The notes below the pieces were generated by a model. That model was not told the DNA's origin, searched no databases, and saw only the letters and a list, made by a program, of their open reading frames with translations. A stretch of DNA of 64,000 nt from Elusimicrobiota bacterium. GTDB lineage: Bacteria; Elusimicrobiota; Elusimicrobia; UBA1565. A program made the translations under genes and the position numbers. The stretch is from the NCBI GenBank assembly GCA_003450735.1, contig DMEZ01000072.1, positions 39,846 to 103,845 on the forward strand, given 5' to 3'. Shown one piece after another: positions 1 through 20,471 of the stretch. Positions within the stretch are counted from its first letter, which is position 1, and each line of letters opens with the position of its first letter.

Positions 1-3000
1 GGACGCCGGAGAAATCCGCCTGGGTGGAGGCCTGGAGCAGGTAGCCTTCCGAGGTGTTGGAGGAGCCTTCCAGCGCCGCGCCCGGCAGGGGCACCCAGTT
101 CACCGTGACGCTGGTGATGAAGACGCTCGCGATGTCCGGCCCCGAGGCGGCGTTGGCGAGGGTCGAGGTGGAGGCGGGCCCGGCGGGCGCGGTGGAGGCC
201 TCGCCGTCCCAAAGGGCGCCGGTCCGGAGGAAATAGGTCGTGTTCGGCTCCAGCCCTTCGAGCGCCAGCGCCGAGAGCAGCCCGTTCGTCGTGGCGGAGG
301 AATGGACCGCCTGGGAGAAGTCCGCGTAGGTCGAGGCCTCGACCACGTACCCCGAGGCGCCGACGGGCCTGAAGGAGACCGTGAGGCTCGACAAGAACAC
401 GACCGAGGCCGCGCCCGCGCCTGGGGCCGGGCCGATCGGGGTCCGCGTCGAGAGCCCGCTTGTGAAGTTGAGCCGCTCGGTCCAGTTCCGGGTCCCCAAG
501 CGCAGATAGTACGTCTTCTGCGTCCAGAGGCCCGAGACGCTCAGGGTGCTCGACCAGGCGCTCGCCGATGCCGTCGAGAAGACCGTGCCGGAGAAATCGG
601 CCGCGGTGGACGCCTCGAGCAGGTAGCCTTCGCAGGTGTTGGACGACCCCGCCACCGACGGCGGCGGGAGCATGCTCCAGGAGGCCGTGAAGCTCGTGAT
701 GTGCGTCTGGAGCACCGCGAGGTTCGCCGCGAGGTTGGTCAAGGTCGCCGTCGAGAGCGGCGCCCCCGGGACGTAGCTCGGCGTCCCTCCCCAGAGGGCC
801 GCCGAGCGCAGGTAGTAGGTCGTGTTCGGCAGGAGGTCCCGGACCGTGAGGGTCTGGAGGAGCGCCGAGGGCGTCTCCGATGAGCGCACGGTCCCGCTGA
901 AATCGAGGGCCGTGGAGGCCTCGACGCGGTACCCGGTCCCATCCGTGAAGCCGTAGCTCACCGCGGCGCTCGACACGTACGCGTCCACGAGGGCCTGGAC
1001 CGCTGGAGCCGGCCCGCGCAAAGTCAAGGTGGAGCCCGCCGCCGCGAAGTGGGCCGCCCCGGGCCAGTTGAGCGTCCCGAGCCGGAAGTAGTTGGTCGTG
1101 TCGCCCGGCATGAAGCGGACGGTCAGCGTGGTCACCGCGACGTCGGTCGTGACGGAGGAGAACACCAGCCCCGTGAAATCCGCGGCCGTGGACGCCTGCA
1201 GGACGTAACCCTCCGACGTGCTCGTGGAGCCCGCCTGGGCGGCGGTCGGCATGGGGGTCCAGTGGAGGGTTGCGCTCGTGATGAACACCGCCGCGAAGCC
1301 GAAGCCCGAGGCGGGGTCGGGGAGCGTCGAGGAGGAGGAGGAGGCCCCGTAGCTGGTCGCGGCCCCCCAGAGGGCGCCGGCCTTGAAGTAGTAGGTCGTG
1401 TTGCGCTCGAGGGAATGAAGAGTGAGGCTGCCCGCGGACGCGCTCGCCGAGGAGAACACCGTCCCGCTGAAGTCCGCGGCGCTCGAGGCGCGGACCTCGT
1501 AGCCGTCCGCGCTCATGAGGCTGAAGCGCACGCTCAGGCTGGCCCCGAAGGCCTCGTACACGGCGGCGGTGTCCGGCGGCGGGCCGGGCGCCATCCAGGT
1601 CGAGTCGGCGGCCTCGAAGGAGGGGGTGCCGTTCCAGTTCAGCGTCGCCACCCGGAAGTAATAGGTGGTCTGGGTCGCCAGGCCGGAGAGCGTCAGCGTG
1701 CTCTGGAGGACGCTCTCCGTGGCCGAGGAGAAGACGACTCCCCGGAAGGCCTGGTCGGTCGAGCCCTCCAGGCGGTAGCCCTCGGCCGTGCTGGAGGAGC
1801 CGGCCTCCTCGGCGCTCGGCAGGCGGTCCCACGCGATCGCGGCGCTCGTGATGAAGACGCGGGCGAAGCGCAGGCCGGCCGGGAGGTTCGCGAGGGTCGC
1901 CGTCGAGCCGGCGACCGAGGCGTAGAGGGTGGTACCGCCCCAAAGCGCTCCGGCCCGCAGGTAGTAGGTCGTGTTCGGGAATACGGTCGGGCTCAGCTGG
2001 GCGGGGGAGGCCGGCGTCGCGGAGGAGTGCACCAACCCGAGGAAGGAGGCGTCCGTGGAGGCCTCCACCACGTAGCCGTCGGCGCCGACCGCGCCGAAGG
2101 AGACGGTGAGGCTCGAGACATGGACGGCCGCGGCCTGCGGCGAGCCGGGGACGGGGCCCGCCAGCATCAGCGCCCAGAGGCTGTCGTCGAAACCGGGGGT
2201 CGAGGCCCAGTTCAAGGTGCCGACTCGGAAGTAGTAGGTGACGCTGGAGGAGAGCCCGCTCAAGGTCAGGGTGCTCAGGGCGATGTTCGCCGTGAAGGAG
2301 GAGGTGAGCGTCCCGCTGAAGTCCGGCGCGCTCGACGCCTGGAGGACGTAGCCCTGCGCGCTGCTCGAGGAGCCTTCCTGGGCGGCCGAAGGCAAGGCGG
2401 CCCAGTTCAGGGTCGCGCTGGTGATGCCCAGCAGGGCCACCTGCTGGGCCCAGACGGCTCTGGCCAGGGTGGGAGTCGAGAGGCTGGAGGCGTAGCTGGG
2501 CGCCCCCTCCCATAGCGCCGCGGCCCGCAGGTAGTAGGTCGCGTTGGGATCGAGGCCCTGCACCGCCAGGGCGTTGACCCAGGGCGAGAGGGTCGTCTCG
2601 GAATGGAGCGTCCCCCTGAAGGCGGCGTCGGTGGAAGCCTCGAGGGCGTAGCCGGCCGCCCCGACGGTGGAGTAGGCCACCATCACGCTCGAGCGGTGCA
2701 CGGAGAACACGGAAGGGCTCCCGGGCGGAGGCCCGATCGCGGTGAGGGTCGAGCTGATGCTCGAGTGGTTCTCGCGCCCGCCCCAGTTCCGGACGCCCAC
2801 GCGCAGGTAGTAGGTGGTGTGGGTCGCCAGGCCGGTCAAGGTGAGGGTGCTCTGGAACACGCTCGGCGTGGCCGAGGAGAAGAGCACACCCCGGAAGGCG
2901 GGGTCGGTCGAAGCGCTCAGCAGGTAGCCCGAGCAGGAGCTCGAAGAGCCTTCCTCCTCGGCGGTCGGCAGGCGCCCCCACGATACGGTGAGGCTCGAGG

Positions 3001-6000
3001 GGAACACCTCGAGGGTGTGCCCCCCCAGGGCCAGGCGCGCCAAGGTCGAGGTGGAGCCCGGGACCGCGGCCGCGTAGGTGGTCACCCCGGACTCGAGGCC
3101 GCCGACCCGGAACCAGTAGGTCGTGTTCCGGTCGAGCCCGGTCACGGCGAGCGCGTTGAGCGCTGGATTGGGCGTCGCCGAGGAGGGCCCGGCGGCCTGG
3201 AAGTCCGGATCGGTGGACGCCTCGACGACGTAGGCCTCGGTCGCCACGGTCCCCCAGTTGAGCGTGACGCTGCTTTCGTAAACGGCCGCGACGACCGGGT
3301 CGGCGGGCGGGGTGCCCGCGACCGTCAGCGAGTCGACCGGAGAGGTGGGGTTCTCGGCCGAACCCCAGTTCAGGGAGTTGGCCCGGAAGTAGTAGTGGAC
3401 CCCGGCGCCCAGGCCCGCCACCGTCAAGGTGCTCAGGAAGACGTTGGGCGTCCAGGAGGATCGGACGATCCCGGTGAAATCGGGCGCGGTGGAGGCCTGC
3501 AGGAGGTAGCCCTCCGCCGTGCTCGCCTGCGGGCCCGCGGGCAGAGGCGCCCAGCTGAACGTGGCGCTGGTGTAGAACACGACCTGGGCCTGGAACCCCT
3601 CAGGGGCGTCGGCCAGGGTCGAGGCGGGCGCCGCGGCCGTCGAGTGGATGTAGGCCCCGTCCCACCAGGCCCCCGCCCGGAGATAGTACGTCGTATTGGC
3701 GTCGAGGCCCGTGAGGACCAGGGAGGCCAGCGACGGGCTCGCCGTGGCGGAAGAGACCAGCGTCCCGGTGAAGTCCGCCGCCGTGGAGGCCTCCGCGGAG
3801 TAGCCCGACGCGCCGACCGGCCCGTAGACGACGCTCATGCTCGTCAACGACACCTGAGCGGCGGCCGGCGCCAGCGGGCCCAGGCCCGGGGCCGTGCGGG
3901 TGGAGGTGGGCCCGACATAGCCGGGGCGATCGCCGAAGTTGAGCGTCCCCACCCGGAGGTAATAGGTCGTCCTCGTCGAGAGGCCGGACACGGTTAGGGT
4001 GCTCAAGGATACGTTGAGCGTCGCGGAGGAGTAGACCGCGCCGCTGAAATCCTCCTCCGGGGAGGCCTGCACCAGGTAGCCCGACGCCGAGCTCGACGAC
4101 CCTTCCGCGGCCGCGGCCGGGAGGGGCACCCAGCAGACGGTGAAGCTGGTCACGTGCACGGCCTTGAACTCGACCCCCGAGACCAGCCGAGCCTGGGTGG
4201 CGATCGACTCCGGGGTCGCCGCGGCGTAGGTGGTCGCCCCCGCCTTCACCGAGCCGGCGCGGAAATAATAGGTCGTGTTCGTGTCCAGCCCGAGGACCGC
4301 CAGCGAGCTCTGGGCCGGGTTCGCAGAGGCCGAAGAAAGGAACGCGCCGGTGAAGTCCGGGTCCGTGGAAGCCTCCACGACGTAGGCCTCCCCGTCGCTC
4401 AAACCCCAGGCCAGGGAGGCGCTGGAGTAGTAGACGGCGGTGACCGTGGGGTTGGCCGGCGGCGAGCCCCCCCTCGTCCAGGAGGAGACCCAGAGCTCGA
4501 AGTCGGGCGCCGACTGCCAGTTCAGCGAGCCGGCCCGGAAATAGTAGGTCGTGCCCGCGTTGAGGTTCCGCACCGTGAGGGTGCTCTGCGCGACGTCCGA
4601 GGTCGACGAAGAACGCACGATCCCGGAGAAATCGGGAGCGGTGGAGGCCTGGAGGACGTAGCCCTCCGCCGTGAAGGACTGTCCCGCGGATGCGTCGGGG
4701 AGGGCCGTCCAGTCGAGCGTCGCGCTGGTATAGTGCACGGCCACGAGGCGCAGGTCGCTGAGCGGCCGCGCCAGCGTCGAGCCGGGTGAGGCGGCAAGCG
4801 CCGCGACCTGCCCGTCCCAGAGCGCGCCCACCCGGATATAGTAGGTCGTGTTGTTCTGCAGACCGTCCACGATCAGGGACGCGCCCGCTCCGCTCTCCGT
4901 GGACGAGGAGAAGAGCGTCCCGCCGAAGTCCTGCGCGGTGGACAAATCGACCACGTAGACCTCCGCGCCCACGGGCGTGTAGGTCACGCTCATGCTGGAG
5001 CGGAAGGGGGCGCCCATGGCCGGGCTGCCCGGCGCCGGGCCGGCCACCGTCGCCGTCGATTCGCCGCCTGCGTAGTGGGCGCGCCCGTCATGGCCCAGCG
5101 TGCCGACGCGGTAGTAGTAGGTCGTGCGCGTGGACAGCCCCCCGACGCTGAGGGAAGCCTTCAGCGCGCTCGGCGTGGCCGAGGAGAAGACGGCCCCGCC
5201 GAAGTCGGCGTTCTGGCAGGCCTCCAGCAGGTAGCCTTCCGCCGTGTTCGAGGAGCCCGCCTCGGCCGCCGTCGGCAGGCGCGTCCAGGACACGGTGAAG
5301 CTGGTCGCGTAGAGCGCGGCCGTCTGCACGTTCGAGACCAGGTTCGCGAGGGTCGGCGAGGAGAGGAAGGCTCCGGCGTAGGTGGTCACCCCGTACTCGA
5401 GACCGCCCGCGCGGAGATAGTAGGTCGTGTTCGGATAGAGCCCGCCCACGCTCAGCGCGGCGAGCGCGGCGTTGGGGGTGGAGGAGGAGAGGAGGAGGGC
5501 CTCGAAGTCGGGGTCCGTCGAGGCCTCCACCACGTAGCCCTGCGTCGCGGCGGGCAGCCAGCTCACCGTGGCGCTCGAGAGCCCAGCGGCGGAGACGGCC
5601 GGGCTGCCCGGGGGGTTCCCGCCGGAGGTGCGGACCCAGCCGCCGGAAGCCGGGTTGGAGACCGACCCCCAGTTCAGGGACCCGACCCGGAAGTAATAGG
5701 TAGCGCCCGCGTTGAGGCCCCGCACCGTCAGGGTGCTCAAGGAGACGTTGGGCGTCCTGGACGAGCGCAGGAGGCCCGAGAAGTCGCCCGCGGTGGAGGC
5801 CTGCAGCAGGTAGCCCGACGCGGAGTTCGAGGAGCCCTGCTGGGCGGCCTCGGGCAGGGCGGCCCAGTTCAGGGTGACGCTCGTGTAGAAGACCGAGGCC
5901 TGCTGGACGCCGGAGGGAGCGTTGGCGAGGGTGGCCGCCGCCTGCGCGGAGGCGTAGCTGAAGGTCGAGCCCCAGACGGCGGCGGCGCGCAGATAGTAGG

Positions 6001-9000
6001 TGGTGTTCGGGTCGAGCCCCGCGGGGGAGAGCACGTCGAGCTCCGGGGAGGCGGTGGCGGAGGAGACGACCGTCCCCGAGAAGTCGGCGGCAGTCGAGGC
6101 GTCGACCCGGTAGCCGTCCGCGCTCACCAGGCCGTAGCTCACCGTGGCACTCGTGCGGTGCAGCGACGCGGCCGGAGCGGCGGGAACGGGGCCGTTGAGG
6201 GTAACGCGCGAGGAGAGGTTCCTGAAGTTCGCTCCGCTCGACCAGTCCAAGGTCGCCAGGCGCAGATAATACGTGGTCTGGACGGCCAGGCCCCGGAGCG
6301 TCAGGGCCGACGCGCTCACGTCCAGGGCGGCGCTCGAGAAGAGGACCCCCCTGAAGCCGGGGTCGGTGGAGGCCTGCAGGAGGTAGCCCTCCGCGCTGTT
6401 GGAGGAACCCGCCGCCGCCGCGCTCGGCAGGGGCGTCCACGCGGCCGTGATGCTCGTGATGAAGACGGAGAGCGCCGGCGTCCCCCCCACCGGGTTGGCC
6501 AGGGTGGAGCTCGAGAGCACGATCCCCGAGAAAAGGAGCGTCCCTCCCCAGTTGGAGGCCGCGCGCAGGTAGTAGGTCGTGTTCGGGAGCAGGTTCTGCG
6601 GGGCGAGCTGGATCGTCTGGCCCGAGGAGGCCGAGGAGAGCACGGTCGAGAAGTCCGCGGCGGTGGAAGCCTGGACGGCGTAGCCGTCGGCACCGACGGC
6701 GCCGTAGGAGACCGCGGCGCTCGAGAGCCCGATGCCCGCGAGCAGCGGGCTGGCCGGGGCGGGGCCCGCCAGGGTATGGAAGGTGAGCACACCCGGGAAG
6801 TTCGGGGTGCCGTTCCAGTTGAGCCCGCCGACGCGGTAGCGGTACTCCACGTCCGAGGCGAGCCCCGTGAGCGTCAGGGTGCTCAAAGAGACGCTCGGGG
6901 TAGCCGAGGACTTCACCCCGGAGGAGAAGTCGGAGGCCTGGGACGCCTGTAGAAGGTAACCCTCCGCCGTGTCCGCCTGCGGCCCGGCCGGGAGCGGCGT
7001 CCAGTTGAAAGTCGCGCTGGTGATGAAGATCGAAGCGGCCTGCGCGTTGGTCACGTCGGCGCTCAGCGTGGAGGTCGAGAGCGCGGACGCGTAGACCGTG
7101 CTCGTCCCCCAGAGGGCGCCGGCCCGGAAGAAATAGGTCGTGTTGGCCGCCAGGCCCGCGGGGGTGAGGCGGTCGGCCGAAGGGGAGAGGGAGGAGGCCG
7201 TGAAGAGCGTCCCGCTCAGGTCCGAGGCCGTCGAGGCGTCCACGGTGTAGCCGTCCGCGCTCACAAGCCCCCAGGCGATGGTCGCGCTGCTCTTGAAGGA
7301 GGCGTAGGCGGCGGGCGAGACCGGAGCGAGGCCGGCCAGGGTCGCGCCCGAGCCGGCTGGGACGAAGTTCGCCGCGCCGGCCCAGTTGAGCCCGCCGACC
7401 CGCAGGTAGTAGGTCTTGGAGGTCGAGAGCCCCGTCACGCTCAGCGTGCTCTGGCCCACGGCCGAGTTCCTGGACGAGAACAGCGCGCCCCGGAACAGGG
7501 AATCGGTGGAGGCCTGCAGGAGGTAGCCCTCCGAGGAGTCCGCCTGCGGCGCCGCGGGCAGGGCGTTCCAGTTCACCGTCACGCTCGTGAAGAAGATCCC
7601 CGCGCCCTGGGGATTGGCCGCGAGAACCGTCAAGGTGGGGGTCGACACCGGCGTCGTGAGGGCGTAGCTCGTGACCTGGGAGGCGATGGCGCCCGCCCGC
7701 AGGTAGTAGGTCGTGTTGGCGGAGAGGCCGGTCACGGTCAGGGGAGAGACGACGCCGTTCGCCGTGAAGAGCGTCCCGAAGAAATCCGGGTGGGTGGATG
7801 CCTGGACAAGGTAGTTGGGAGCTCCTGAGAGTCCGAAGGAGACGGTCGCGCTCGTCCGATAGACCGCCGAGGGGACTGGACTCAGGGGAGGATCGTTGCC
7901 GTTGGTCCGGGTCGAATAGACGGCCGTATAGAAGTTCGCCTGAGACTGCCAGTTCAGGGAGCACGCCCGGAGATAGTAGGTCGTGACGGCGCTCAACCCC
8001 TCGACCGTCAAGGTGCTCAAGGAGACGTTGGGGGTCGAGGAGGAATAGACGATCCCGCTGAAATCGCTCATCGTGGACGCCTGAAGGAGGTAGCCCTCCG
8101 ATGTGCTCGTGGAGCCCTGCTGATCCGCCGTGGGACGAGGGACCCAGTTCATCGTGACGCAGGTGGTGAAGTTGACGCCGTAGAGCTGCTCGTTCGACAC
8201 CGGGTTCGCCAGCGTGACGGCCGACCGGCTCGAGGCGTAAAGGATGTCGTAGCCCCACATGGCCCCGGCGCGGAGATAGTAGGTCGTGTTGGGATAGAGG
8301 TCCGATGGAGTGAGAGCCGCAAGGCCGGGGTTGTCCGTTGAAGTGGACGTCAGCGTCCCGCTGAAATCGGAGGCCGTGGAGGCTTGCACGACGTAGCCCG
8401 AGGCCCCGACGAGGCTGTAGGAGTAGGTGAGGCTCGAGTTGAAGACCCCGGTCACTTCCGTACTGGTCGGCGCGGAGCCGGTCAGGGTGATGGTCGACAC
8501 CAGGGGGGCGGTGCTGGACGCCGAAGCCCAGTTCAGCGAACCCACCCGAAGGTAATAGGTCGTCCTGCCCATGAGGCCTGTTAAAGTCAGGGTGCTCAGG
8601 TCCACGTTCATCGTCTTCGTCGAGAGAATCGTCGCGGTGAAGTCCGTCTTGCTGGAGGCCTCGAGCAGATAGCCCTCGCAGGACATGCTCGCGAGGGCCA
8701 TGTCCGTGTTCGGCAAGGGCACCCAGTTCACGGTCATGCTCGTCCCGTATACCCTATCGACCTGGAGTCCCGTCGGAGGGAGGGCGAGCGTGGACGTGCT
8801 GAAGGGGGCGACGTCCGCGAAGTTCGTGGCTCCCATATTGATCGCCCCGATCCTCAGGTAGTAGGTGGTGTTGGGGAAAATAGTCGATGTGGGGCTATTG
8901 ACGAGGGAGAGCCGGGTCAGGAACGTGCCGGAGGTGGCCGAGGTGCGGATGTGCTGAAAATCCTGGTCGGTGGAGCCTTGCAGGACGTAGCCCTCCGCCA

Positions 9001-9650
9001 CGACCGCGAGGTAGCCCACCTGGATGGTTCCGGTCGAGACCCCTCGGACCGTGGGCAGACCCGGGGGCGGCACCCCGTTGGAGAGGGTGACGCCCGAGCC
9101 GCCGCCGACGTGGTTGGGAACGCCGCTCGCGTTCAGGCCGCCGGCCCGGAAGTAGTGGGTCTTGTTGGGGTTGAGCCCATACACCGTCACAGTGCTGACC
9201 AGGGGGTCCTGACTCACCGCCACGGAGGTGAGGCCGCTGAAATCCGGGGCGGTGGAGGCCGCGAGCTGGTAGCCGAAGGACGAATCCTTCTGGGGCGCCG
9301 GGGACAGGGCGTTCCAACAGAGGGTCGCGCTCGAGATGTGGACGGCCTTGATCTCGATGTTCGCGACCTCGCGGGTCAGCGTCCCCAGGTTCGTCGGGTC
9401 CGTGCTCTGATAGTAGGTCGTGCCTCCCCAGACCGCCCCGACCCGGTAGTAGTAGAGGGTGTTCTGGTCGAGGCCTTGCAAGGAGAGGCGCTCGAGCGCG
9501 GGGTTGTCCGTCGAAGAGGAGAAGCGGGTGCCGCTGAAGTCCGCCATGGTCGAGGCCTGCGCGACGTAGGCCACGGCGTCCGTGAGCTCGTAGGTGAGGG
9601 TCACGCTCGTCTTGGCGAGCGCATAGATGCTCGGGGAATCCGGAGGGCCC
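1..9650 (-). repeat. Intragenic tandem array: 17 di-domain units (two alternating FN3-like flavours), spacing 564-591 bp, mean about 576 bp (about 192 aa)
   Basis: The invariant Trp codon of the A-type unit (plus-strand cca inside ...cccagttcaccgtgacgctggtgatgaa...-like strings) recurs at 95, 677, 1259, 1829, 2402, 2978, 3551, 4130, 4709, 5285, 5864, 6437, 7001, 7568, 8144, 8723 and 9314. Every spacing is a multiple of 3. The array continues past the left edge. Confidence 0.85.
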
Positions 9651-12085
9651 ACGGGGTCCCAGGTGACTTTGCCGTTGGGGTCGTACTCGCGCCGCCGCCC
9701 CCGGTAGGGGCCGGAGGGAGCGCTGAAGTACCAGCTCAGGGCTGAATCCTCCTCCATGACCCGGACGTTGTAGGCCGCGCCAGCCCCGGCCGTGCTGCGG
9801 CTCATGGCGAACTGCACCCCGTAGAAGGTGGCCGCCGACGTGAGCGCCCGCGCGGTGATGAAGGACCCGGTGGTCCTCTCGACCATCCCGAAGAGGTCGA
9901 AGGTGCTGCTCGCGAGGCTCACTCCTCCCGAGCCCGAGAGCTGGAGCCCGTCCGGGTCGAGGTTGCTCATCGTGGCGTAGGCCGCGGTGAAGGCGCCGGA
10001 ACACACGAAGGAGTAGTAGGGGACGGTGCCCTCGAAGCTGTCCAGGAGGGCGTAGGCGGTGGCCATCCCGCGCAGGACGAGGCCGGCGCCCGGGGCCACG
10101 GTCAGCTTGCTGCGGCCGCGGTTGGACGAGGCGGCCGAGCCCGCGAATAGGAGGCGCTTCTGGCGGTTCTGGTCGGCGGTGGCCGCTCCGAGCACGAATT
10201 CGAGCCGGTCGCCTTCCGCGGGAGCCGGGCCCTGGGTGAAGCGGAGGGTGAACTGCGTGTTGGAGGCCGGCACGGCCTTGCCGCTCTGATCCCCCGTGAA
10301 CGAGACGAGGTTCGCGCCGCTGCTGGAGCCGTCCACGCGCCACTGCCCTGAGCGGTACACGATGCTGACGAGCTGGGTGAGAGCGTTCGCGTCGCTGAGA
10401 GCGCTGACGCTGGCCGAATGCCCGCTCCCCCGCACGAGGGCGGGGACGGTCGCCGTCGAGACCAGCAGGCGCTGGGAATGATCGAGGGTCAGGGTGCTGC
10501 CGGAGAGGAGGTAGTCTCCCCAGAGCCGGAGGGCGCCGAGCTCCTGATTGTGGCCGAAGGAGAGCAGGCTCTTGCCGGGGGCGTCGTACTCGTCGATGGC
10601 CGGGAGGCCCGTCAGGTTCACCCGGCGCAGGGAGAGGCTGGCGGAATGGGCCCCCGTGTCGATGCTCACCGAGGCCCCGTCCGGCGCGGACGCGTCGCCC
10701 AGGTCGCCCTCGAAGACGTCCGCGGAGGAGCCGGCCGCGGAGAGGCCGGCCCCGACGTTGGCGTAGGTGAAGTTCCCCGCCAGAGGCTTCTGGACGCCCG
10801 AGAGAAGATGGAAGCCGTCCCCGCCGTTGCCCGAAGCGCTGTTCTGCGCCAGGAAGTTGCCCGACGAGGCCCTCACGATGAAGCCGTCCCCGCCGTTCAG
10901 GTACGATTCGTTCTGGAGGAGCACGTTGGCGTCGGACGCCGCGTCGAGCCGCAGGCCGCTGCCGTTCTGCCCGAACACGAGGTTCTGGACGAGGAGGTTG
11001 TAGGGCGAGGCGCTCAGGAAGAACCCGTCGCCTCCTCCGGCCCTGCCGTTCGAGAAGAGCGCGTTGCCGCGGAAGGTGGAGCTCGAGGCGCCGAGCAGGT
11101 GCACCGCGGGGCCCGAGGAGAAGCTGATGGAGTTGTACGAGAAGGTCGCGTCGGAGGCGCCGAGCAGGGTCAGGCCCGTGAAGCCGCCCCGGAAGGTGGA
11201 GCTCGAGATGACCGCCCTCGCCCGGGTGGCGATGCAGACGCCGAACTTGTCCGGGGAGGAGGGGTCTCCGAGCTCCTGGAAGAGGGCGTGCGCGGCGTAG
11301 AAGCCGGTCGCGTGGCTGCTCAGGCTGCGGAGGAAGGAGCTCTTCGCCAGGTTCCGGGAAGCCACGCGGACGTTCCTCGTCAGGTTCACCAGCCTGAGCG
11401 TGCGGCTCGCGTCGTGATCGTACTCCAGGCCCTGCCCCCAGGAGATCGTCGCATTGTCCCAGAAGGTGATGATCCCGTTGAGGGAGCGGAACTCGGTCTG
11501 CTCCCCTTCCCCGAGCTCGGTGCGGGTGACGGCGATGACGTCGCCGGGCTTCCAGCCGTTCACGTCCGCGATGGGGAGGCTCGCCTGGGTGGCGTTCCTG
11601 GGAAGGCTCGCCTGGGGGATGCCGAACGGGGCCCGGGCCGCCCCGCGCAGGGTGAGGTTCCCTCCGTCCTGGACGACCAGGCCGTACTGGCCCGAGACCG
11701 TGCCGGAGGCCAGGACGATGCCGGCTCCGATCCCCGCGGGGATGGGGTCCGCGTCGGTGCCTGCGTCGAGCAGGCCCCCCGGCATGATGGTCAGATCGCC
11801 CGCCGTCAGGGTCAGGCTGCTCGAAGCGACCCGGCTCATCTTGAGCGTCCCCTTCACGCTCAGGCTCGCCGCGGTGGCCGCCAGGTTGTCGACCGTGACG
11901 ATGTGGGTGTTCTGGACGGTGACCGTGTCGCCGGCGCCTGGGACCACCCCGCCGACCCAGGTGACGGCCAACGACCAGTTGCCGCTCTGCGAGGACTGGA
12001 TGGCCGCGCTCTGCGCGCCGACCGCGCAGAGCGCGAGCGCCGCGAGCGCACCAGCCAGGGAGTTTATTCGGCGCCGTCTATCCAT
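1..12085 (-). CDS. Giant secreted adhesin/surface-fibre-like protein, partial (start codon at 12085, no stop before the window edge, at least 4028 codons): signal peptide + parallel beta-helix region + about 34 FN3-like domains
   Basis: Absent from the ORF track because the frame never reaches a stop inside the window. Reverse-complement reading from ATG 12085-12083 gives MDRRRRINSLAGALAALALCAVGAQSAAIQSSQSGNWS (signal-peptide-like). PbH1-like repeats follow (STFRGGFTGLTLLGASDATFSYNSISF, GNGGDGFHLL), then repeated FN3-like units (EGYLLQAST..DFSG...TLTVxGL...TTYYFRVGxLNW alternating with GADGYVVEAST..F.G...L.PNTTYYLRAGALWG). Codons checked at 10420, 9757, 8572, 5092 and 4 are all in register with 12085. 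Confidence 0.88.
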   Translation of the reverse strand, partial: MDRRRRINSLAGALAALALCAVGAQSAAIQSSQSGNWSLAVTWVGGVVPGAGDTVTVQNTHIVTVDNLAATAASLSVKGTLKMSRVASSSLTLTAGDLTIMPGGLLDAGTDADPIPAGIGAGIVLASGTVSGQYGLVVQDGGNLTLRGAARAPFGIPQASLPRNATQASLPIADVNGWKPGDVIAVTRTELGEGEQTEFRSLNGIITFWDNATISWGQGLEYDHDASRTLRLVNLTRNVRVASRNLAKSSFLRSLSSHATGFYAAHALFQELGDPSSPDKFGVCIATRARAVISSSTFRGGFTGLTLLGASDATFSYNSISFSSGPAVHLLGASSSTFRGNALFSNGRAGGGDGFFLSASPYNLLVQNLVFGQNGSGLRLDAASDANVLLQNESYLNGGDGFIVRASSGNFLAQNSASGNGGDGFHLLSGVQKPLAGNFTYANVGAGLSAAGSSADVFEGDLGDASAPDGASVSIDTGAHSASLSLRRVNLTGLPAIDEYDAPGKSLLSFGHNQELGALRLWGDYLLSGSTLTLDHSQRLLVSTATVPALVRGSGHSASVSALSDANALTQLVSIVYRSGQWRVDGSSSGANLVSFTGDQSGKAVPASNTQFTLRFTQGPAPAEGDRLEFVLGAATADQNRQKRLLFAGSAASSNRGRSKLTVAPGAGLVLRGMATAYALLDSFEGTVPYYSFVCSGAFTAAYATMSNLDPDGLQLSGSGGVSLASSTFDLFGMVERTTGSFITARALTSAATFYGVQFAMSRSTAGAGAAYNVRVMEEDSALSWYFSAPSGPYRGRRREYDPNGKVTWDPVGPPDSPSIYALAKTSVTLTYELTDAVAYVAQASTMADFSGTRFSSSTDNPALERLSLQGLDQNTLYYYRVGAVWGGTTYYQSTDPTNLGTLTREVANIEIKAVHISSATLCWNALSPAPQKDSSFGYQLAASTAPDFSGLTSVAVSQDPLVSTVTVYGLNPNKTHYFRAGGLNASGVPNHVGGGSGVTLSNGVPPPGLPTVRGVSTGTIQVGYLAVVAEGYVLQGSTDQDFQHIRTSATSGTFLTRLSLVNSPTSTIFPNTTYYLRIGAINMGATNFADVAPFSTSTLALPPTGLQVDRVYGTSMTVNWVPLPNTDMALASMSCEGYLLEASSKTDFTATILSTKTMNVDLSTLTLTGLMGRTTYYLRVGSLNWASASSTAPLVSTITLTGSAPTSTEVTGVFNSSLTYSYSLVGASGYVVQASTASDFSGTLTSTSTDNPGLAALTPSDLYPNTTYYLRAGAMWGYDILYASSRSAVTLANPVSNEQLYGVNFTTCVTMNWVPRPTADQQGSTSTSEGYLLQASTMSDFSGIVYSSSTPNVSLSTLTVEGLSAVTTYYLRACSLNWQSQANFYTAVYSTRTNGNDPPLSPVPSAVYRTSATVSFGLSGAPNYLVQASTHPDFFGTLFTANGVVSPLTVTGLSANTTYYLRAGAIASQVTSYALTTPVSTPTLTVLAANPQGAGIFFTSVTVNWNALPAAPQADSSEGYLLQASTDSLFRGALFSSRNSAVGQSTLSVTGLSTSKTYYLRVGGLNWAGAANFVPAGSGATLAGLAPVSPAAYASFKSSATIAWGLVSADGYTVDASTASDLSGTLFTASSLSPSADRLTPAGLAANTTYFFRAGALWGTSTVYASALSTSTLSADVTNAQAASIFITSATFNWTPLPAGPQADTAEGYLLQASQASDFSSGVKSSATPSVSLSTLTLTGLASDVEYRYRVGGLNWNGTPNFPGVLTFHTLAGPAPASPLLAGIGLSSAAVSYGAVGADGYAVQASTAADFSTVLSSASSGQTIQLAPQNLLPNTTYYLRAASNWGGTLLFSGIVLSSSTLANPVGGTPALSVFITSITAAWTPLPSAAAAGSSNSAEGYLLQASTDPGFRGVLFSSAALDVSASALTLRGLAVQTTYYLRLATLDWSSGANFRNLSSRVTLNGPVPAAPAASLHRTSATVSYGLVSADGYRVDASTAADFSGTVVSSATASPELDVLSPAGLDPNTTYYLRAAAVWGSTFSYASAQAAATLANAPSGVQQASVFYTSVTLNWAALPEAAQQGSSNSASGYLLQASTAGDFSGLLRSSRTPNVSLSTLTVRGLNAGATYYFRVGSLNWGSVSNPASGGWVRTSGGNPPGSPAVSAAGLSSATVSWLPAATQGYVVEASTDPDFEALLLSSSTPNAALAALSVGGLYPNTTYYLRAGGLEYGVTTYAGAFLSSPTLANLVSNVQTAALYATSFTVSWTRLPTAAEAGSSNTAEGYLLEACQNADFGGAVFSSATPSALKASLSVGGLSTRTTYYYRVGTLGHDGRAHYAGGESTATVAGPAPGSPAMGAPFRSSMSVTYTPVGAEVYVVDLSTAQDFGGTLFSSSTESGAGASLIVDGLQNNTTYYIRVGALWDGQVAALAASPGSTLARPLSDLRLVAVHYTSATLDWTALPDASAGQSFTAEGYVLQASTAPDFSGIVRSSSTSDVAQSTLTVRNLNAGTTYYFRAGSLNWQSAPDFELWVSSWTRGGSPPANPTVTAVYYSSASLAWGLSDGEAYVVEASTDPDFTGAFLSSASANPAQSSLAVLGLDTNTTYYFRAGSVKAGATTYAAATPESIATQARLVSGVEFKAVHVTSFTVCWVPLPAAAAEGSSSSASGYLVQASPEEDFSGAVYSSATLNVSLSTLTVSGLSTRTTYYLRVGTLNFGDRPGYVGPTSTRTAPGLGPLAPAAAQVSLTSMSVVYGPVGASGYSAEASTAADFTGTLVSSATASPSLASLVLTGLDANTTYYLRAGAWWDGAYIHSTAAAPASTLADAPEGFQAQVVFYTSATFSWAPLPAGPQASTAEGYLLQASTAPDFTGIVRSSWTPNVFLSTLTVAGLGAGVHYYFRANSLNWGSAENPTSPVDSLTVAGTPPADPVVAAVYESSVTLNWGTVATEAYVVEASTDPDFQAAGPSSATPNPALNALAVTGLDRNTTYWFRVGGLESGVTTYAAAVPGSTSTLARLALGGHTLEVFPSSLTVSWGRLPTAEEEGSSSSCSGYLLSASTDPAFRGVLFSSATPSVFQSTLTLTGLATHTTYYLRVGVRNWGGRENHSSISSTLTAIGPPPGSPSVFSVHRSSVMVAYSTVGAAGYALEASTDAAFRGTLHSETTLSPWVNALAVQGLDPNATYYLRAAALWEGAPSYASSLSTPTLARAVWAQQVALLGITSATLNWAALPSAAQEGSSSSAQGYVLQASSAPDFSGTLTSSFTANIALSTLTLSGLSSSVTYYFRVGTLNWASTPGFDDSLWALMLAGPVPGSPQAAAVHVSSLTVSFGAVGADGYVVEASTDASFLGLVHSSATPASPAQLSPTVFPNTTYYLRAGALWGGTTLYASVAGSTATLANLPAGLRFARVFITSAAIAWDRLPSAEEAGSSSTAEGYRLEGSTDQAFRGVVFSSATESVLQSTLTLSGLATQTTYYFRVATLNWNGTPSFEAADSTWMAPGPPPDTAAVYEAFGASLSVRFSLMSADGYEVRASSAADFSGTVFSSASASAGSLTLHSLERNTTYYFKAGALWGAATSYGASSSSSTLPDPASGFGFAAVFITSATLHWTPMPTAAQAGSTSTSEGYVLQASTAADFTGLVFSSVTTDVAVTTLTVRFMPGDTTNYFRLGTLNWPGAAHFAAAGSTLTLRGPAPAVQALVDAYVSSAAVSYGFTDGTGYRVEASTALDFSGTVRSSETPSALLQTLTVRDLLPNTTYYLRSAALWGGTPSYVPGAPLSTATLTNLAANLAVLQTHITSFTASWSMLPPPSVAGSSNTCEGYLLEASTAADFSGTVFSTASASAWSSTLSVSGLWTQKTYYLRLGTRNWTERLNFTSGLSTRTPIGPAPGAGAASVVFLSSLTVSFRPVGASGYVVEASTYADFSQAVHSSATTNGLLSALALEGLEPNTTYFLRTGALWDGEASTAPAGPASTSTLANAASGPDIASVFITSVTVNWVPLPGAALEGSSNTSEGYLLQASTQADFSGV

Positions 12086-12128
12086 GCGGGGACAGGTCTC
12101 TATTAGGGAAATAAACCGTTCCCCCCGT

Positions 12129-12157
12129 TATGTAGCCCTAAAACCCCGGAAAGTCAA
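12129..12157 (-). promoter_or_regulatory. Putative sigma70-type promoter of the giant gene (TTGACT-N17-TACATA)
   Basis: The minus strand reads TTGACTttccggggttttagggcTACATA in the AT-richer 94-bp gap between the mtgA stop (12180) and the ATG at 12085. Confidence 0.3.
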
Positions 12158-12179
12158 TAACAGAAAGGTTACAGACTTT

Positions 12180-12914
12180 TCAGGGCTGTTCGGGCTCCGC
12201 GGGAGGCGGGAGGCGCCCGGCGCGGCGCATGCGCTGGAGGTACACGTCGATCTTCTGCAGGGTGACGGGGTCGGGCTGGGTGGGGTTGAGGCGGTAGGGG
12301 CTGGGCAGGGCGGCGACGAGGGCCACGGCCTCCTCCGGGCTGAGGTCGGCGGCGTGCTTCTCGAAATAGGCGAGGCTGGCCGCCTCGGCGCCGAAGATGC
12401 CCACCCCCCACTCCACGATGTTCAGGTAGATCTCGAGGATGCGGTCCTTGTCGAGGGAGCGGTCGATGTGGCGCGCGATGAGCAGTTCCCTCAGCTTGCG
12501 CATGGGCGTCCTACTGGGAGACAGGAAGAGGTTCCGCGCCACCTGCTGGGTGATGGTGCTCGCGCCGCGGGAGAGCCTGCGCCTCTTGAGGTTGTAGCCG
12601 GCCGCCTGCCGGAGGGCCTCCCAATCCACTCCCCGGTGGGAGTAGAAGCGGTCGTCTTCGGCGATGAGCACCGCGTAGCGCAGGTACGGAGAGATCCCTT
12701 CGAGCGGGACCCAGACCATGGAGACCGCGGGATGCCCCCCCTTGGACAGCACCCGCCGGACGTAGAGCTCCACGTACTTCGTCGTTCGCGGGTTGTCCAT
12801 CCGCAGGACGGAGACGTCCGGCAGCCACGCCTGGTAGGCCGCCGCGACAGCCGCGGACAGCAGGAAGGCCGCGAAGACGGCGGCGAAGGTCTTTCCGGTC
12901 AGCTCGTTTCCCAA
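12180..12914 (-). CDS. mtgA: Monofunctional peptidoglycan glycosyltransferase (GT51)
   Basis: 244-aa ORF with a TTG start 4 nt after the addA stop and an N-terminal TM helix. GT51 motifs present: EDDRFYSHRGVD, GASTITQQVARNL, RKLRELLIA. Confidence 0.9.
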   Translation of the reverse strand: MGNELTGKTFAAVFAAFLLSAAVAAAYQAWLPDVSVLRMDNPRTTKYVELYVRRVLSKGGHPAVSMVWVPLEGISPYLRYAVLIAEDDRFYSHRGVDWEALRQAAGYNLKRRRLSRGASTITQQVARNLFLSPSRTPMRKLRELLIARHIDRSLDKDRILEIYLNIVEWGVGIFGAEAASLAYFEKHAADLSPEEAVALVAALPSPYRLNPTQPDPVTLQKIDVYLQRMRRAGRLPPPAEPEQP

Positions 12915-12918
12915 AAGC

Positions 12919-15900
12919 TCAGGGCTCCCTTAAGAGGATAAGCTCGAAACGCACTTTCCGCAATCCCAGGGCCCCCTCGACCGCCTTCGAGTAGAGCTCC
13001 CCCTGCGCCCCCTCCTTCGGGGCGCGGCCGGTCTTGTAGTCGTAGACCACGACCCCCTGCTCGTCTTGGCAGACCAGGTCCATGACGCCCCGTACGGTCG
13101 CAGTCCCCCGCCTCATGACGAAGGGCAGTTCCCGGCCAAGGATCTCGCTGGCCGCGATGCGCTTCGCGGCCTTGGACGCGAGGAACTTCTCGAGGAGCCC
13201 CCGGGCTTCCATGACCAGGGCCTTCTCGTCCTGCCCGGGCGCGTCGAGGCAGACGGCGCGGGCGGCCTCGGAGACGGCCTTCCCGAGGTCTGCGCCCTTC
13301 CGGTAGTCCCAGCGCTCGAGGACGGCATGGCAGAGGCTGCCCAGCAAGGCGGCGCGCGCCGACCGGGGCCCGCGCTCGCCGGATTCGCTCGCGTCCTCCC
13401 CGGCGGCGCTGGGCCGGAGGAAGAGCGGGGCCTTGGACAGGGCCTCCTCCCTCTTCCGGCGGGCCTCCCAGGCCTTGGCGAAGGCCTCCCCCTCGGGCAG
13501 GCGGAACCCCTCCAGGACCGTCCTGGGGAGGGACCTGCGGTCCTGCTCGGGGGCTGGGAGGGTCCTTCGAGGCAGGGCGCCGGCATCGTCGAGGAGCCCG
13601 GCGAAAGTGCCCTTGGAGCCCGGCCCGCCCAGGAGGATGAGGCGCTCCTTGGGCCTCGTCATGCCGACGTAGAGGACGCGGAGCTCCTCGGCCTTCTGCC
13701 GGACCTTCTCTTCGGCCGCGAGGACGGCCATCGCGGCGTTCTGAACGCCTCCCTCGCCGAGCCGCAAACCCACCGTCCCGTCGGCCCAGCGCACGAAGAC
13801 GGCGCCGCCGCCCCCGCCCCGGGGCGCCGAGGCCAGGTTGGGCATGAGCACGACGGGATACTCGAGGCCCTTGGCCTTGTGCACCGTGAGCAGGCGCACC
13901 GCGTCGAGCCCCTCGTCGGCGAGCGGGCTTTCCCCTTCCTCGTGCAGCTCCCGAACGGACTCCTCCACTTCCGCGATGAACTCCTTGAGAGTCGCCCCGC
14001 GCTCCCCGGCGTCCCAGGCAAGACGGCTGAACTTGAGGAGGTTCGAGGCGGTCTGCTGGTGGTGGTAGGCGGCCGCGGAGAGCTCCACGAAGGGCGTCTC
14101 CTCCATGACCAGGCGCACGAGCTCCGGCATGGGGCGGCGCCCCGCGGCCGCGTTGAGGCGCCGAAGGAGGGCGTAGAGCGGCTCCGCGACGGTGCCTCCC
14201 TTCCGATAGTCAAGCTTCCCAGCGCGGGCCAGCCGGCAGACCTCCTCGTCCTCGAAGCCGGCCAGCGGCGAGCGGAGCAGTCCGACCAGCGAGAGCGCGT
14301 CGTCCGGGTCGTCGGCCGCGCGCAGGAGGTTCAGGAAGTCCACGACCTCCTGCGCCGCGTAGAAGCGCCGCTCCCCCTCCACCACGTAGGGGATGCCCCG
14401 CCGGCGCAGGGCGTCGAGGTAGACGGGCAAAGGGCTCGTGACCCGCAGGACGATGGCGATGTCCTTGAGCGGCATGCTCGGGGGCCGCTTCTCGATCCAG
14501 CCGGCGATCCACTCGGCCTCGGCGGCCCGCGCCTCGTCGGCCTTGAGCTTGGAGCCCTCCGCGGCCTGGAAGCCCACCCACTCCACCGCGCCGGGAGCCT
14601 CCCCCTGGGCCGGGCCGGGATAGATGGGCAGGTAGCCCGGCTGGAGCCCAGCCCGCGCGCGCATGAGCGGCTCAAAGCAGCGGTTGACCGCCTCCACGAC
14701 TTCGGGGCGGCTGCGGAAGTTGGTCTGCAGGGCGCAGGAGAGGGCCCCGTGCCTCTCCAGGTGCTCCGTGAACGACTCGAAGGCGAGCATGTCGGCGCCG
14801 CGGAAGCGGTAAATCGACTGCTTGGGGTCGCCCACGACGAAGAGCTTCCCCTCGGCCGGCTTCGAGCGGCGCCACTCCTCGGCCGAGCTCTTCTCCCGCT
14901 CGCCGAGGAAGAGGAGCAGTTCCCCCTGCAGGGGGTCGGTGTCCTGGAACTCGTCGATGAGCAGGGCCTTGAAGCGCCGCTTGAGGTCCTCCCGGACGCC
15001 CGGCTGGCCCCGGACGAGGTCGCGGGCCGAGACGAGGAGGTCGTCGTAGGAGAGGAAGCCCCGCCGGCGGTAGAGGACGCGGAAGGCCTCGACGAAGGGG
15101 CGCACGAGGGCGACGGCGCAGGCGAGGAGTTCCTCCGCCGCCGGGTCGAGCTTGACGGCGACCTCCGCGAGGGCGTCGTACTCCTCCTCCCCCTCCGGGG
15201 GCCAGCTTTTGGGCCAGCTGGCCGGGTTCTTGGTGGGGCGGGGCGGACGCTCATGCGTCCGCCCCGCGGCGGCCGCCTCGAAGGCGCCCTTCATCCAGTC
15301 CAGGTACGCCAGGATGCTGCCCTTCGGCTTCGGGCCCGACCCCTTGAGACGCTCGCAGGCCGCGGCCATCTGCTTGAGCCGGTCCTTCATCTCAGGACCT
15401 AAGCCGGTCTTGTCCAAATCCACCCGTGGGCTCGCGAGGCCGCGCGCGAGGTCGTGCAGGACCTCCACGGAAGCCCCGGCCAGGGCCTTCTTCCAGAGCG
15501 CCTTGCGGGGAGGGGCCTCCCCGAGCTCCCGGTCGAGCCAGAGCGCCCACTCCCCCTCGAAGAGCTCGTCGAAGGCGGCTTCGTCGGCGTCTACCTGGAA
15601 GTCCGGCGCCACCCCGGCCTCCAGCGGGTAGAGCCGCAGGAGGGAGGAGCAGAAGGAGTGGATGGTGCCGATCTCGGCCCGGTCGAGTTCCTTGAGGGCG
15701 GTCTGGGAGAGCGCGAGAACCTGCTCGGGCGTCCGCTTGAAGCGCTTCCGGAGCTCCTGGAGCAGGTCGTCCATTCGCGCGCGCCGCTTCTCGTCGAGCT
15801 CGCCGCCCTCGATGCGGGCGGAGAGGTCGCCCAGGGCCTCGGCCAGGCGCAGGCGGATCTCGGAGGCGGCCTTGTCGGTGAAGGTGAGGGCGACGATCTC

Positions 15901-16062
15901 CTCGACCTTCGCGGGGACGCCGCCGCGCCCGCCGAGCAGAAGGGAGAGGACGCGGTCGATGAGCAGGGTCGTCTTGCCGGTGCCGGCCCCGGCCTCGACG
16001 ATGACGTTCTTCTCGAGCTCGAAGCGGGCGAGCTCCCGGGCCGCGGCGTCGCGCAAACTCAC
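12919..16062 (-). CDS. addA: ATP-dependent helicase/nuclease AddA (UvrD/PcrA-type SF1 helicase with C-terminal PD-(D/E)XK nuclease)
   Basis: Walker A EAGAGTGKTT, DEFQDT, VGDPKQSIYRFRGA, TVHKAKGLEYPVV, and C-terminal MDLVCQD...VVYDYKTG nuclease motif. The track ORF (to 16650) has an Arg/Pro-rich 196-codon extension. GTG at 16062 overlaps the addB stop as GTGA and starts VSLRDAAARELARFELEKNVIVEAGAGTGKT. Confidence 0.9.
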   Translation of the reverse strand: MSLRDAAARELARFELEKNVIVEAGAGTGKTTLLIDRVLSLLLGGRGGVPAKVEEIVALTFTDKAASEIRLRLAEALGDLSARIEGGELDEKRRARMDDLLQELRKRFKRTPEQVLALSQTALKELDRAEIGTIHSFCSSLLRLYPLEAGVAPDFQVDADEAAFDELFEGEWALWLDRELGEAPPRKALWKKALAGASVEVLHDLARGLASPRVDLDKTGLGPEMKDRLKQMAAACERLKGSGPKPKGSILAYLDWMKGAFEAAAAGRTHERPPRPTKNPASWPKSWPPEGEEEYDALAEVAVKLDPAAEELLACAVALVRPFVEAFRVLYRRRGFLSYDDLLVSARDLVRGQPGVREDLKRRFKALLIDEFQDTDPLQGELLLFLGEREKSSAEEWRRSKPAEGKLFVVGDPKQSIYRFRGADMLAFESFTEHLERHGALSCALQTNFRSRPEVVEAVNRCFEPLMRARAGLQPGYLPIYPGPAQGEAPGAVEWVGFQAAEGSKLKADEARAAEAEWIAGWIEKRPPSMPLKDIAIVLRVTSPLPVYLDALRRRGIPYVVEGERRFYAAQEVVDFLNLLRAADDPDDALSLVGLLRSPLAGFEDEEVCRLARAGKLDYRKGGTVAEPLYALLRRLNAAAGRRPMPELVRLVMEETPFVELSAAAYHHQQTASNLLKFSRLAWDAGERGATLKEFIAEVEESVRELHEEGESPLADEGLDAVRLLTVHKAKGLEYPVVLMPNLASAPRGGGGGAVFVRWADGTVGLRLGEGGVQNAAMAVLAAEEKVRQKAEELRVLYVGMTRPKERLILLGGPGSKGTFAGLLDDAGALPRRTLPAPEQDRRSLPRTVLEGFRLPEGEAFAKAWEARRKREEALSKAPLFLRPSAAGEDASESGERGPRSARAALLGSLCHAVLERWDYRKGADLGKAVSEAARAVCLDAPGQDEKALVMEARGLLEKFLASKAAKRIAASEILGRELPFVMRRGTATVRGVMDLVCQDEQGVVVYDYKTGRAPKEGAQGELYSKAVEGALGLRKVRFELILLREP

Positions 16063-19521: not shown

Positions 19522-19773
19522 ATGCCCACGGTTTTGATGGTTGCTGGCTGGCGATTTTTCTTCTATTCAAACGAGAGGAACGAGCCTGTCCATATCCATT
19601 GTCGAAAAGCCGATGCCGAAGCGAAATACTGGCTGGACATCGACTCTTTTGAAGCAGTTGAGGCTCATAGCTACAACATGAGTCCCGCCGACAAGAGGGC
19701 CGTCAGGAAGATCATCTTCGAGCATTTCGACTATATCGTTGCCGAATGGAAACGGTGGGAGGGGATGAAATAA
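19522..19773 (+). CDS. DUF4160 family protein
   Basis: MPTVLMVAGWRFFFYSNERNEPVHIHCRKADAEAKYW is the hallmark DUF4160 N-terminus. GGAG sits 8 nt upstream. Local GC is far below the window average. Confidence 0.85.
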   Translation: MPTVLMVAGWRFFFYSNERNEPVHIHCRKADAEAKYWLDIDSFEAVEAHSYNMSPADKRAVRKIIFEHFDYIVAEWKRWEGMK

Positions 19774-20030
19774 TGGATAAGGCACACGAAGTGTCGAAGG
19801 TCTCAATTTCCGGCAACAATATCCACCTGCTGGTTGATGGGCGGGAATACGATATCGACCTTTCAAAGCATTCCGAGAAACTTGCCAACGCGTCAAAGGA
19901 GCAGAGACAGCATTTCGTTGTTTCGCCATCCTGCTACGGAATTCATTGGCCTGCAATCGACGAAGATCTCTCGATTGACGGTTTGATTGGCGTTACCCAC
20001 ACAAGCCCGCTCGCCAAATCAACGAAGTAG
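19773..20030 (+). CDS. DUF2442 family protein
   Basis: MDKAHEVSKVSISGNNIHLLVDGREYDIDL...YGIHWPAIDEDLSIDGLI. The ATG overlaps the DUF4160 stop (TAATG). The track start at 19746 lies inside the upstream gene. Confidence 0.8.
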   Translation: MDKAHEVSKVSISGNNIHLLVDGREYDIDLSKHSEKLANASKEQRQHFVVSPSCYGIHWPAIDEDLSIDGLIGVTHTSPLAKSTK

Positions 20031-20468: not shown

Positions 20469-20471
20469 AAG

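Follow-up and report, generated by a model that had tools for sequence, protein, structure and literature searches.

A giant Elusimicrobiota gene predicted to encode an exported protein with a beta-helix head and a long array of fibronectin type III domains

Introduction

What kind of protein is encoded by a gene so long that it runs off the edge of the DNA in which it was found, and what might such a protein do for its cell? The DNA analyzed here (hereafter, the window) is a stretch of 64,000 nucleotides (nt) from contig DMEZ01000072.1 of an Elusimicrobiota bacterium. On its minus strand, the leftmost 12 kb are occupied by a single frame for which a first, sequence-only reading had proposed a giant secreted protein with a beta-helix head, followed by an array of fibronectin type III (FN3) domains. 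Elusimicrobiota are unusually rich in proteins of more than 5000 amino acids (aa) without functional assignment (PMC11573180; bioRxiv 10.1101/2023.11.21.568195). As these giant proteins have already been surveyed, the gene in the window is a further member of a recognised, uncharacterised class, and its product is large but fairly typical of a family of huge surface proteins, itself uncharacterised, that is common in the phylum. The account that we favor, and consider probable, is that of an extracellular fibre, anchored to the surface of an uncultivated groundwater bacterium, whose head would bind or cleave glycans.

Open frame and full length of the gene

Translation of window positions 2–12085 on the minus strand yielded 4028 codons from the ATG at 12085 without any stop, as the sequence-only reading had claimed, and each of the other five frames contains 5–159 stops across the same interval. 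The ATG at 12085 is the first possible start, since none of the 14 in-frame codons back to the previous stop is ATG, GTG or TTG. The GC content at third codon positions (GC3) amounts to 0.93 overall and to 0.87–0.97 in every 300-codon block, as expected of a real gene in surrounding DNA of approximately 70% GC. The open reading frames (ORFs) that had been listed across 1–12.1 kb, all in other frames and 190–1056 aa long, encode products composed of 28–42% Arg plus Gly and are therefore shadow frames, in line with their earlier description as Arg/Gly-rich artefacts. The giant frame itself was missing from this mechanical list because it runs off the window; the lesson for annotation is that ORF lists that drop edge-crossing frames can miss the largest gene of a window.

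By way of the PurB encoded in the window, the same sequence was found as part of a groundwater-metagenome contig in ENA (ERZ909578 / SRR2177954 / PRJNA292723, k127_401475, 125,830 bp). Both run in the same direction, a position in the window being the ENA record position minus 17,593, so that the window is preceded on its left by 17.6 kb of the contig. The ENA gene table calls a gene from exactly the window's ATG, with a product of 5441 aa for which the Pfam record lists G8 (PF10162), NosD, Beta_helix and fn3. The gene is therefore complete in that contig, with 1413 aa plus the stop codon (approximately 4.24 kb) beyond the left edge of the window. Thus, the description of the gene as open at the window edge held for the window itself, but the frame is not simply endless. 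The part within the window has a computed mass of 410 kDa and an isoelectric point of 4.95, and the whole protein would be acidic, with a mass of about 555 kDa.

Signal peptide and head module

A Sec-type signal peptide, already part of the earlier proposal, is predicted at the N-terminus of the protein (Table 1). By inspection and hydropathy profile, aa 1–27 comprise a positively charged n-region, a hydrophobic core of 15 residues and an Ala-rich c-region, and the conserved head module begins right behind them, at SGNWS (aa 34–38). Two other export signals were discarded: a lipoprotein signal, as there is no lipobox (Leu at position -1 of Cys20), and one for twin-arginine translocation (Tat), given the poor match to the Tat motif and a protein size of approximately 555 kDa.

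The proposal of a head of about 800 aa with a G8 domain and a PbH1-like beta-helix was borne out by Pfam and NCBIfam matches above their cut-offs and by structural modeling. In addition to G8, the Pfam analysis of aa 1–850 retrieved Beta_helix (PF13229; 59.9 bits, cut-off 25.9) at aa 282–432 and NosD (PF05048; 45.2 bits, cut-off 23.6), and the para_beta_helix repeat TIGR03804 scored 35.6 bits (cut-off 19.45). An Asn/Gly ladder with a period of approximately 23–25 aa runs through the helix (N341, N368, N392, N420 and N443). By contrast, aa ~455–797 of the head did not match any Pfam or NCBIfam family at E ≤ 0.1. An AlphaFold2 model of the head based on an 11-sequence alignment was all-beta, with a mean predicted local distance difference test score (pLDDT) of 84.2 and a predicted template modeling (TM) score (pTM) of 0.82, and was confident to about aa 730; a single-sequence run of aa 1–850 gave a pLDDT of 35.

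The distribution and conservation of the head were determined by an exhaustive HMMER search against 1.84 billion cluster representatives. This search returned 2094 proteins at E ≤ 1e-3, 115 of them at E ≤ 1e-30 (best match P0001, E = 0), and in many cases aa ~13–797 align as a single stretch. In a module map of 150 relatives, each protein carries one to four copies of the head, with two to four copies in several giants of 3100–7824 aa. All named matches of the head module belong to Elusimicrobiota and, when GTDB was queried with a 5-sequence head alignment, seven of the eight loci encoding the head were located in metagenome-assembled genomes of this phylum.

Residue conservation, computed over about 130 copies of the module, revealed invariant or near-invariant positions in the G8 region (W37, W43, D66, W178, D182, R237 and N238, with W37 and W43 conserved in 99% of the copies) and in the C-terminal part of the head (W582, D626, D638, K643, Y691, D710 and D730). 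The most conserved charged residues of the whole head, D626, D638, K643, D710 and D730, are situated in this latter part. The copy in the window retains every one of the (near-)invariant residues, including W37, W43, D182, W582, D626, D638 and K643.

The head model was also compared with known structures. Foldseek assigned a probability of 1.0 to many beta-helix proteins; the matches in the PDB comprised the K1 capsule lyase of Klebsiella (7w1c, E 1e-13), phage depolymerases and tailspikes, the epimerases AlgG/AlgE, GH110, and the beta-helix adhesins PfbA and Ag43, while the best query coverage was obtained with the TMEM2 ectodomain (8c6i, query TM-score (TMq) 0.36, E 2.5e-10). In BFVD, the matches were phage tailspikes and members of the pectate lyase superfamily. 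At the sequence level, the profile of the head family matched AlgG at E 2.7e-15 over the PbH1 repeats and, weakly, TMEM2. The best reading of these models and profiles is a carbohydrate-binding or carbohydrate-processing beta-helix, which could be either an enzyme or a pure binder, binding being the safer half of the statement. An AlgG-type epimerase in particular was rejected, as the AlgG segment 'YGIDPHDRSHG', with its catalytic DPHD motif, stands opposite the non-conserved 'agvk.leeasg' of the head family in the profile alignment; nor was a DPH found by eye in aa 282–460 of the window head.

FN3 array

Downstream of the head, a profile built from the repeats themselves resolved 34 consecutive FN3 domains from aa ~791/814 to aa 4028, in agreement with the earlier estimate of about 34 FN3-like domains. 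They are arranged without linkers as 17 strictly alternating pairs of a short A type (89–93 aa, except domain 3 with 99 aa) and a long B type (98–103 aa), the latter with an inserted 'LP..A.Q.GSS.S.EGY' loop. Identity is 44% among A domains, 44% among B domains and 34% between the two types, with a maximum of 66%, and self-alignment at an offset of 1152–1164 nt exposed a weak super-period of four domains.

The assignment to FN3 is founded on several types of matches. Pfam analysis of aa 851–1700 yielded fn3 (PF00041) with 67.5 bits (cut-off 25) and Pur_ac_phosph_N with 76.9 bits; when the domains were scanned singly (E ≤ 0.01), fn3 was detected in 15 and Pur_ac_phosph_N in 19 of the 34. Further, the 34-domain profile matched FN3 structures of titin and fibronectin with E-values down to 7.5e-25. 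At the textbook size of approximately 3.5 nm per domain, a stalk of 34 domains would reach approximately 120 nm, and perhaps about 165 nm if the unseen rest of the protein also consisted of FN3 domains; the earlier figure of more than 100 nm follows from the same arithmetic.

Base composition varies along the gene. At window positions 7500–9500, GC content is 0.63–0.65 (vs. 0.70–0.73 in the rest of the giant gene) and GC3 is 0.87–0.89 (vs. 0.92–0.97). This interval corresponds approximately to FN3 domains 1–7, which include the most divergent copies (domains 1–4).

Relatives and the unseen C-terminus

The relatives of the protein carry NCBI names such as 'right-handed parallel beta-helix repeat-containing' or 'fibronectin type III domain-containing' protein and are assigned to Elusimicrobiota. 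Giant members of the family, such as MBI4425856.1, MFH2203946.1 (7824 aa) and PCI36618.1 (4397 aa), share with the window protein a head of approximately 770 aa at 33–43% identity, the same A/B FN3 pair directly behind it and an N-terminal Sec signal, and those that are complete end in a sorting domain of the kind used by the type IX secretion system (T9SS). They differ from it in architecture: the window protein has one head, whereas others carry two to four heads, FG-GAP/VCBS-like, Kelch-like or Big_5 modules. The closest architecture is that of PCI36618.1, an N-terminally partial Elusimicrobia protein that consists of the head, approximately 29 FN3 domains of the window's type, approximately 370 aa of other sequence and a sorting domain. 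Among the 270 relatives examined, the window protein has the longest A/B FN3 array, with 33 full profile matches in the window part alone compared to 29 in the next one.

Two further groups of relatives depart from this layout. A uniform family of Elusimicrobia proteins (P0271–P0390) of approximately 1,180–1,240 aa carries about 10 FN3 domains of the window's A/B kind under generic names ('fibronectin type III domain-containing protein', 'T9SS type A sorting domain-containing protein'). On a complete Elusimicrobia chromosome of 2.72 Mb (OY969767.1), the locus at 9677–16951 encodes a 2424-aa homologue in which the same head is combined with DUF5122 beta-propeller repeats, not with FN3.

The C-terminal domain of the complete relatives spans approximately 80 aa. 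In three of them (P0022, P0028 and P0050), it scored 26–31 bits against TIGR04183, the T9SS type-A sorting domain (cut-off 23), and it also matched FlgD_ig and CHU_C in Pfam. Moreover, the C-terminal columns of the family profile matched the C-terminal domain of PorZ from Porphyromonas (5m11) at E 1.5e-8. By means of a local hidden Markov model, we found this sorting domain at the very end of 43 of the 83 proteins of the head family that are 1000 aa or longer and of 100 of the 120 FN3-array relatives of the uniform family; many of the head-family or FN3 relatives that lack it at their end are truncated.

The earlier statement that a C-terminal sorting part was missing from the window agrees with these results, as 1413 aa lie outside it. 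By analogy with the relatives, we predict that aa 4029–5441 would carry a T9SS type-A-like sorting domain, and the missing part would probably comprise some 13–14 more FN3 domains followed by that domain. T9SS cargo typically pairs an N-terminal Sec signal peptide with a C-terminal sorting domain. JGI metagenome contigs contained no copy that could be recovered with an exact 46-mer from the window edge or with the last 330 aa.

Proposed role and alternatives

In the account that we favor, the protein would be exported through the Sec pathway by virtue of its signal peptide. A C-terminal T9SS type-A-like domain, as expected from the relatives, could then take it across the outer membrane and leave its C-terminal end tethered, with the FN3 array serving as a stalk that would hold the N-terminal head at the distal tip, away from the cell. 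There, the head may bind, and possibly cleave, polysaccharide; candidate targets are the biofilm matrix, the capsule or envelope of another cell, and particulate glycan.

Several observations weigh against this account. Regarding export and anchoring, the C-terminus is situated outside the window, and the only strong Pfam matches on the ENA record are those to the families of the head and to FN3, with two faint entries besides; this is nevertheless compatible with a sorting domain because this domain scores weakly in Pfam. Likewise, no T9SS component was present among the Pfam families of the 64-kb window, a survey in which the T9SS machinery itself was not searched for, and literature searches on Elusimicrobia combined with T9SS or with giant FN3 proteins retrieved nothing specific. 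T9SS has been described for Bacteroidota and the Fibrobacterota–Chlorobiota–Bacteroidota (FCB) group and is not known from Elusimicrobiota. With regard to the head, the Foldseek TM-scores are low (0.2–0.4) and identities range from 7 to 15%; the likeness is therefore one of fold class and not a match to one enzyme family. Catalytic residues could not be assigned in the head, where the DPHD of AlgG falls on non-conserved columns. Conservation within the beta-helix is confined to structural Asn and Gly residues, and the conserved polar residues are mostly located outside it. Finally, the window head differs from the consensus of the head family at two conserved polar positions, R242 (Ala in the window) and E268 (Leu).

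One alternative is a released extracellular polysaccharide depolymerase. Here, the head would be an active lyase or hydrolase and the FN3 domains a spacer or a substrate-binding extension, the protein not being kept by the cell. The best structural matches of the head are capsule or extracellular polysaccharide depolymerases and lyases, and the FN3 domain of chitinase A1 is among the profile matches. FN3 modules are, moreover, common in secreted glycoside hydrolases, and T9SS cargo can also be released. However, no catalytic motif was found, the DPHD of AlgG being absent and the conserved in-helix residues being structural; at least 34 FN3 domains are far more than the one to three of secreted enzymes; and the sorting domain of the relatives is usually associated with surface attachment. 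On balance, we regard a released enzyme as rather unlikely.

The protein might instead be a fibre for attachment to, or attack on, other cells, a role that has been suggested for giant proteins in Omnitrophota, with a head that recognises or breaches the envelope of a host or prey and with a possible effector in the unseen 1413 aa. Elusimicrobiota are enriched in huge proteins, for which a connection with host-associated or predatory lifestyles has been drawn (PMC11573180; bioRxiv 10.1101/2023.11.21.568195). The head has a tailspike-like fold, and in giant relatives several heads occur together with FG-GAP/VCBS-like and Kelch-like repeats. Nonetheless, nothing at this locus points to an episymbiotic or predatory lifestyle, the neighbouring genes being of the housekeeping type (mtgA, addAB, purB and gcvT), and no effector domain is included among the ENA Pfam matches, so that we judge an attack fibre to be quite improbable.

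The integrity of the array was assessed from independent assemblies and from the repeats. Logan assemblies of two other runs were 100% identical to window positions 7504–16784 and 8013–14961, respectively, and the PurB encoded in the window was also detected in JGI metagenome 3300009296, in the Logan assemblies SRR6483009 and SRR5855239, and in ERZ909575. At the DNA level, the FN3 repeats are approximately 64–70% identical and the longest exact direct repeat in the giant gene has 31 nt; only two pairs of exactly repeated 31-mers occur (6363–6393/7503–7533 and 3487/6364). The Logan contig assembled with k = 31 ends at 7504 because the repeated 31-mer (6363/7503) sits exactly there, and it is this repeat that makes short-k assemblies truncate the giant gene. 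The 'k127' in the name of the ENA contig was read as the k-mer size of the assembler, which would be far above 31. Tandem Repeats Finder did not detect an array in the giant gene because the repeats are too diverged. A recent expansion or collapse of repeats was rejected on the grounds that DNA identity does not exceed ~70% and no exact repeat is longer than 31 nt. That the array was inflated or chimerised by short-read assembly, or that the gene is a pseudogene, is very improbable: the sequence does come from short-read metagenome data and two k = 31 Logan contigs do stop within the array, at 7504 and 8013, but the former break is explained by the repeated 31-mer and the k-mer size read from the ENA contig name is much larger, the repeats are diverged and escape tandem-repeat detection, the overlaps with independent runs are fully identical, and the 12-kb frame is open with uniform GC3.

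A bolder version of the surface-anchored fibre can also be formulated, in which the head is a distinct glycan-acting module, composed of G8, beta-helix and a 340-aa beta domain with D626, D638 and K643, that is so far seen only in Elusimicrobiota-labelled genomes, is held more than 100 nm out on FN3 domains and relies on a T9SS-type domain for export or anchoring. In its entirety, we consider this combination unlikely. Were it true, there would have to be either a T9SS-like pathway that has gone unrecognised beyond the FCB group or a novel function of the sorting domain, and the fibre might also fasten these small cells of the groundwater to particulate polysaccharide or to other cells.

The gene is a clean example of its class, a single head being followed by a single uniform stalk and probably by one sorting domain, and it has independent assembly support; by virtue of this simple architecture and support, it is a reasonable test case. 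The questions that it could serve to address are what the head binds or cuts, whether long FN3 arrays determine how far out a surface enzyme or adhesin can act, and how T9SS-type sorting domains are handled outside Bacteroidota.

Comparison with known systems

The succession of a G8 domain and a parallel beta-helix is shared with the eukaryotic proteins TMEM2/CEMIP2, CEMIP/KIAA1199 and fibrocystin PKHD1/PKHD1L1. In fibrocystin-type proteins, the G8 plus beta-helix unit is combined with a long run of Ig-like domains. However, identity is only approximately 9%, the stalk of the window protein consists of FN3 instead of IPT/TIG domains, and GG domains are absent from it. In addition, the window protein is bacterial and has a signal for Sec export, and groundwater is not a setting in which hyaluronan would be expected as a substrate.

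With phage tailspikes and capsule depolymerases, the K1 lyase 7w1c, and AlgG/AlgE, the head has the right-handed beta-helix fold in common. TM-scores to tailspikes and CASH-fold enzymes are only 0.2–0.3, and the head is placed on a huge FN3 stalk, not on a phage particle.

Among bacterial surface filaments, SprB of Flavobacterium johnsoniae is a protein of 6497 aa that forms filaments of approximately 150 nm, carries a type-B sorting domain and functions in gliding motility. The window protein resembles it in size, in the combination of a Sec signal with a C-terminal T9SS domain (here expected from relatives) and in being a putative long repetitive surface filament. SprB differs in its type-B sorting domain, in the nature of its repeats and in its role in gliding, Elusimicrobiota being known neither for T9SS nor for gliding.

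Finally, RTX adhesins of the type I secretion system (T1SS), such as LapA, SiiE and MpIBP, also combine tens of Ig-like extender domains with ligand-binding modules at the far end. Unlike the window protein, they have no Sec signal, are exported by T1SS with the C-terminus first, are retained by an N-terminal plug and bear their ligand-binding end at the C-terminus, the polarity of the window protein being the opposite. Classification as an RTX/T1SS adhesin was consequently rejected on the basis of the Sec signal, the wrong polarity, the G8/beta-helix N-terminus and the lack of any RTX family in the ENA Pfam record.

Upstream gap and remainder of the window

Features of the giant gene and of the DNA upstream of it are compiled in Table 1.

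Table 1. Positions in the window of the giant gene, its predicted parts and the features upstream of it.
Feature	Position	Strand	Basis or remark
Giant gene, first 4028 codons	2..12085	-	no stop; GC3 0.93; ENA gene table
Predicted Sec signal peptide, aa 1-27: MDRRRRINS / LAGALAALALCAVGA / QSA	12005..12085	-	sequence and hydropathy inspection
Head module, aa ~28-797, one conserved unit	9695..12004	-	HMMER, module map, AlphaFold2
G8 domain, aa 42-151	11633..11962	-	Pfam PF10162, 43.2 bits (cut-off 22.9)
Right-handed parallel beta-helix (PbH1/CASH), aa ~282-454	10724..11242	-	Pfam, TIGR03804, profile, Foldseek
Beta-rich C-terminal part of head, aa ~455-797	9695..10723	-	model, conservation
FN3 array, aa 814-4028, 34 domains (last cut by window edge)	2..9646	-	repeat profile, Pfam, structure-profile matches
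Intergenic gap between mtgA-like and giant gene, 94 nt	12086..12179	-	GC 46.8% vs. ~70% around
mtgA-like monofunctional peptidoglycan transglycosylase	12180-12914	-	directly upstream of giant gene
AddA/AddB-type helicase-nuclease pair	12919-16062, 16059-19001	-	upstream, same strand

The giant gene had been proposed to have an AT-richer promoter gap of its own. The composition of the gap agrees with the first part of this proposal, but simple scans for sigma-70 promoters and terminators across 11900–13100 did not find any; by eye, a TTGACT-17 nt-TACATA arrangement can be recognised in the gap, with only 8 of 12 positions matching. Since the scan showed no terminator ahead of the giant gene, its co-transcription with the mtgA-like, AddA and AddB genes is possible.

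In the remainder of the window, the named relatives of PurB all belong to Elusimicrobia or Elusimicrobiota, the best one with 78% identity, and Rfam detected no RNA family anywhere in the window. A cluster of small genes at ~19522–20762 (+) consists of a DUF4160 gene followed by two DUF2442 genes, a pairing often considered toxin-antitoxin-like. Two adjacent genes for secretion ATPases of the T2SSE/PilB type are located at 29750–31789 (-) and 31786–32868 (-); one of the products has an N-terminal response-regulator receiver domain, and the pair adjoins TPR and PAS-histidine-kinase genes. Tandem paralogues with a metallo-beta-lactamase fold, at 52184–53401 (+) and 53414–54565 (+), are followed by a convergent gene for a Y-family DNA polymerase (IMS/DinB-like) at 54562–55797 (-). 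Lastly, a putative operon at 58024–63225 (-) encodes three proteins: one of 859 aa that ends in a trypsin-like peptidase domain, one of 449 aa that matches TraF_2 weakly and may be a beta-barrel of the outer membrane, and one of 386 aa without family match.

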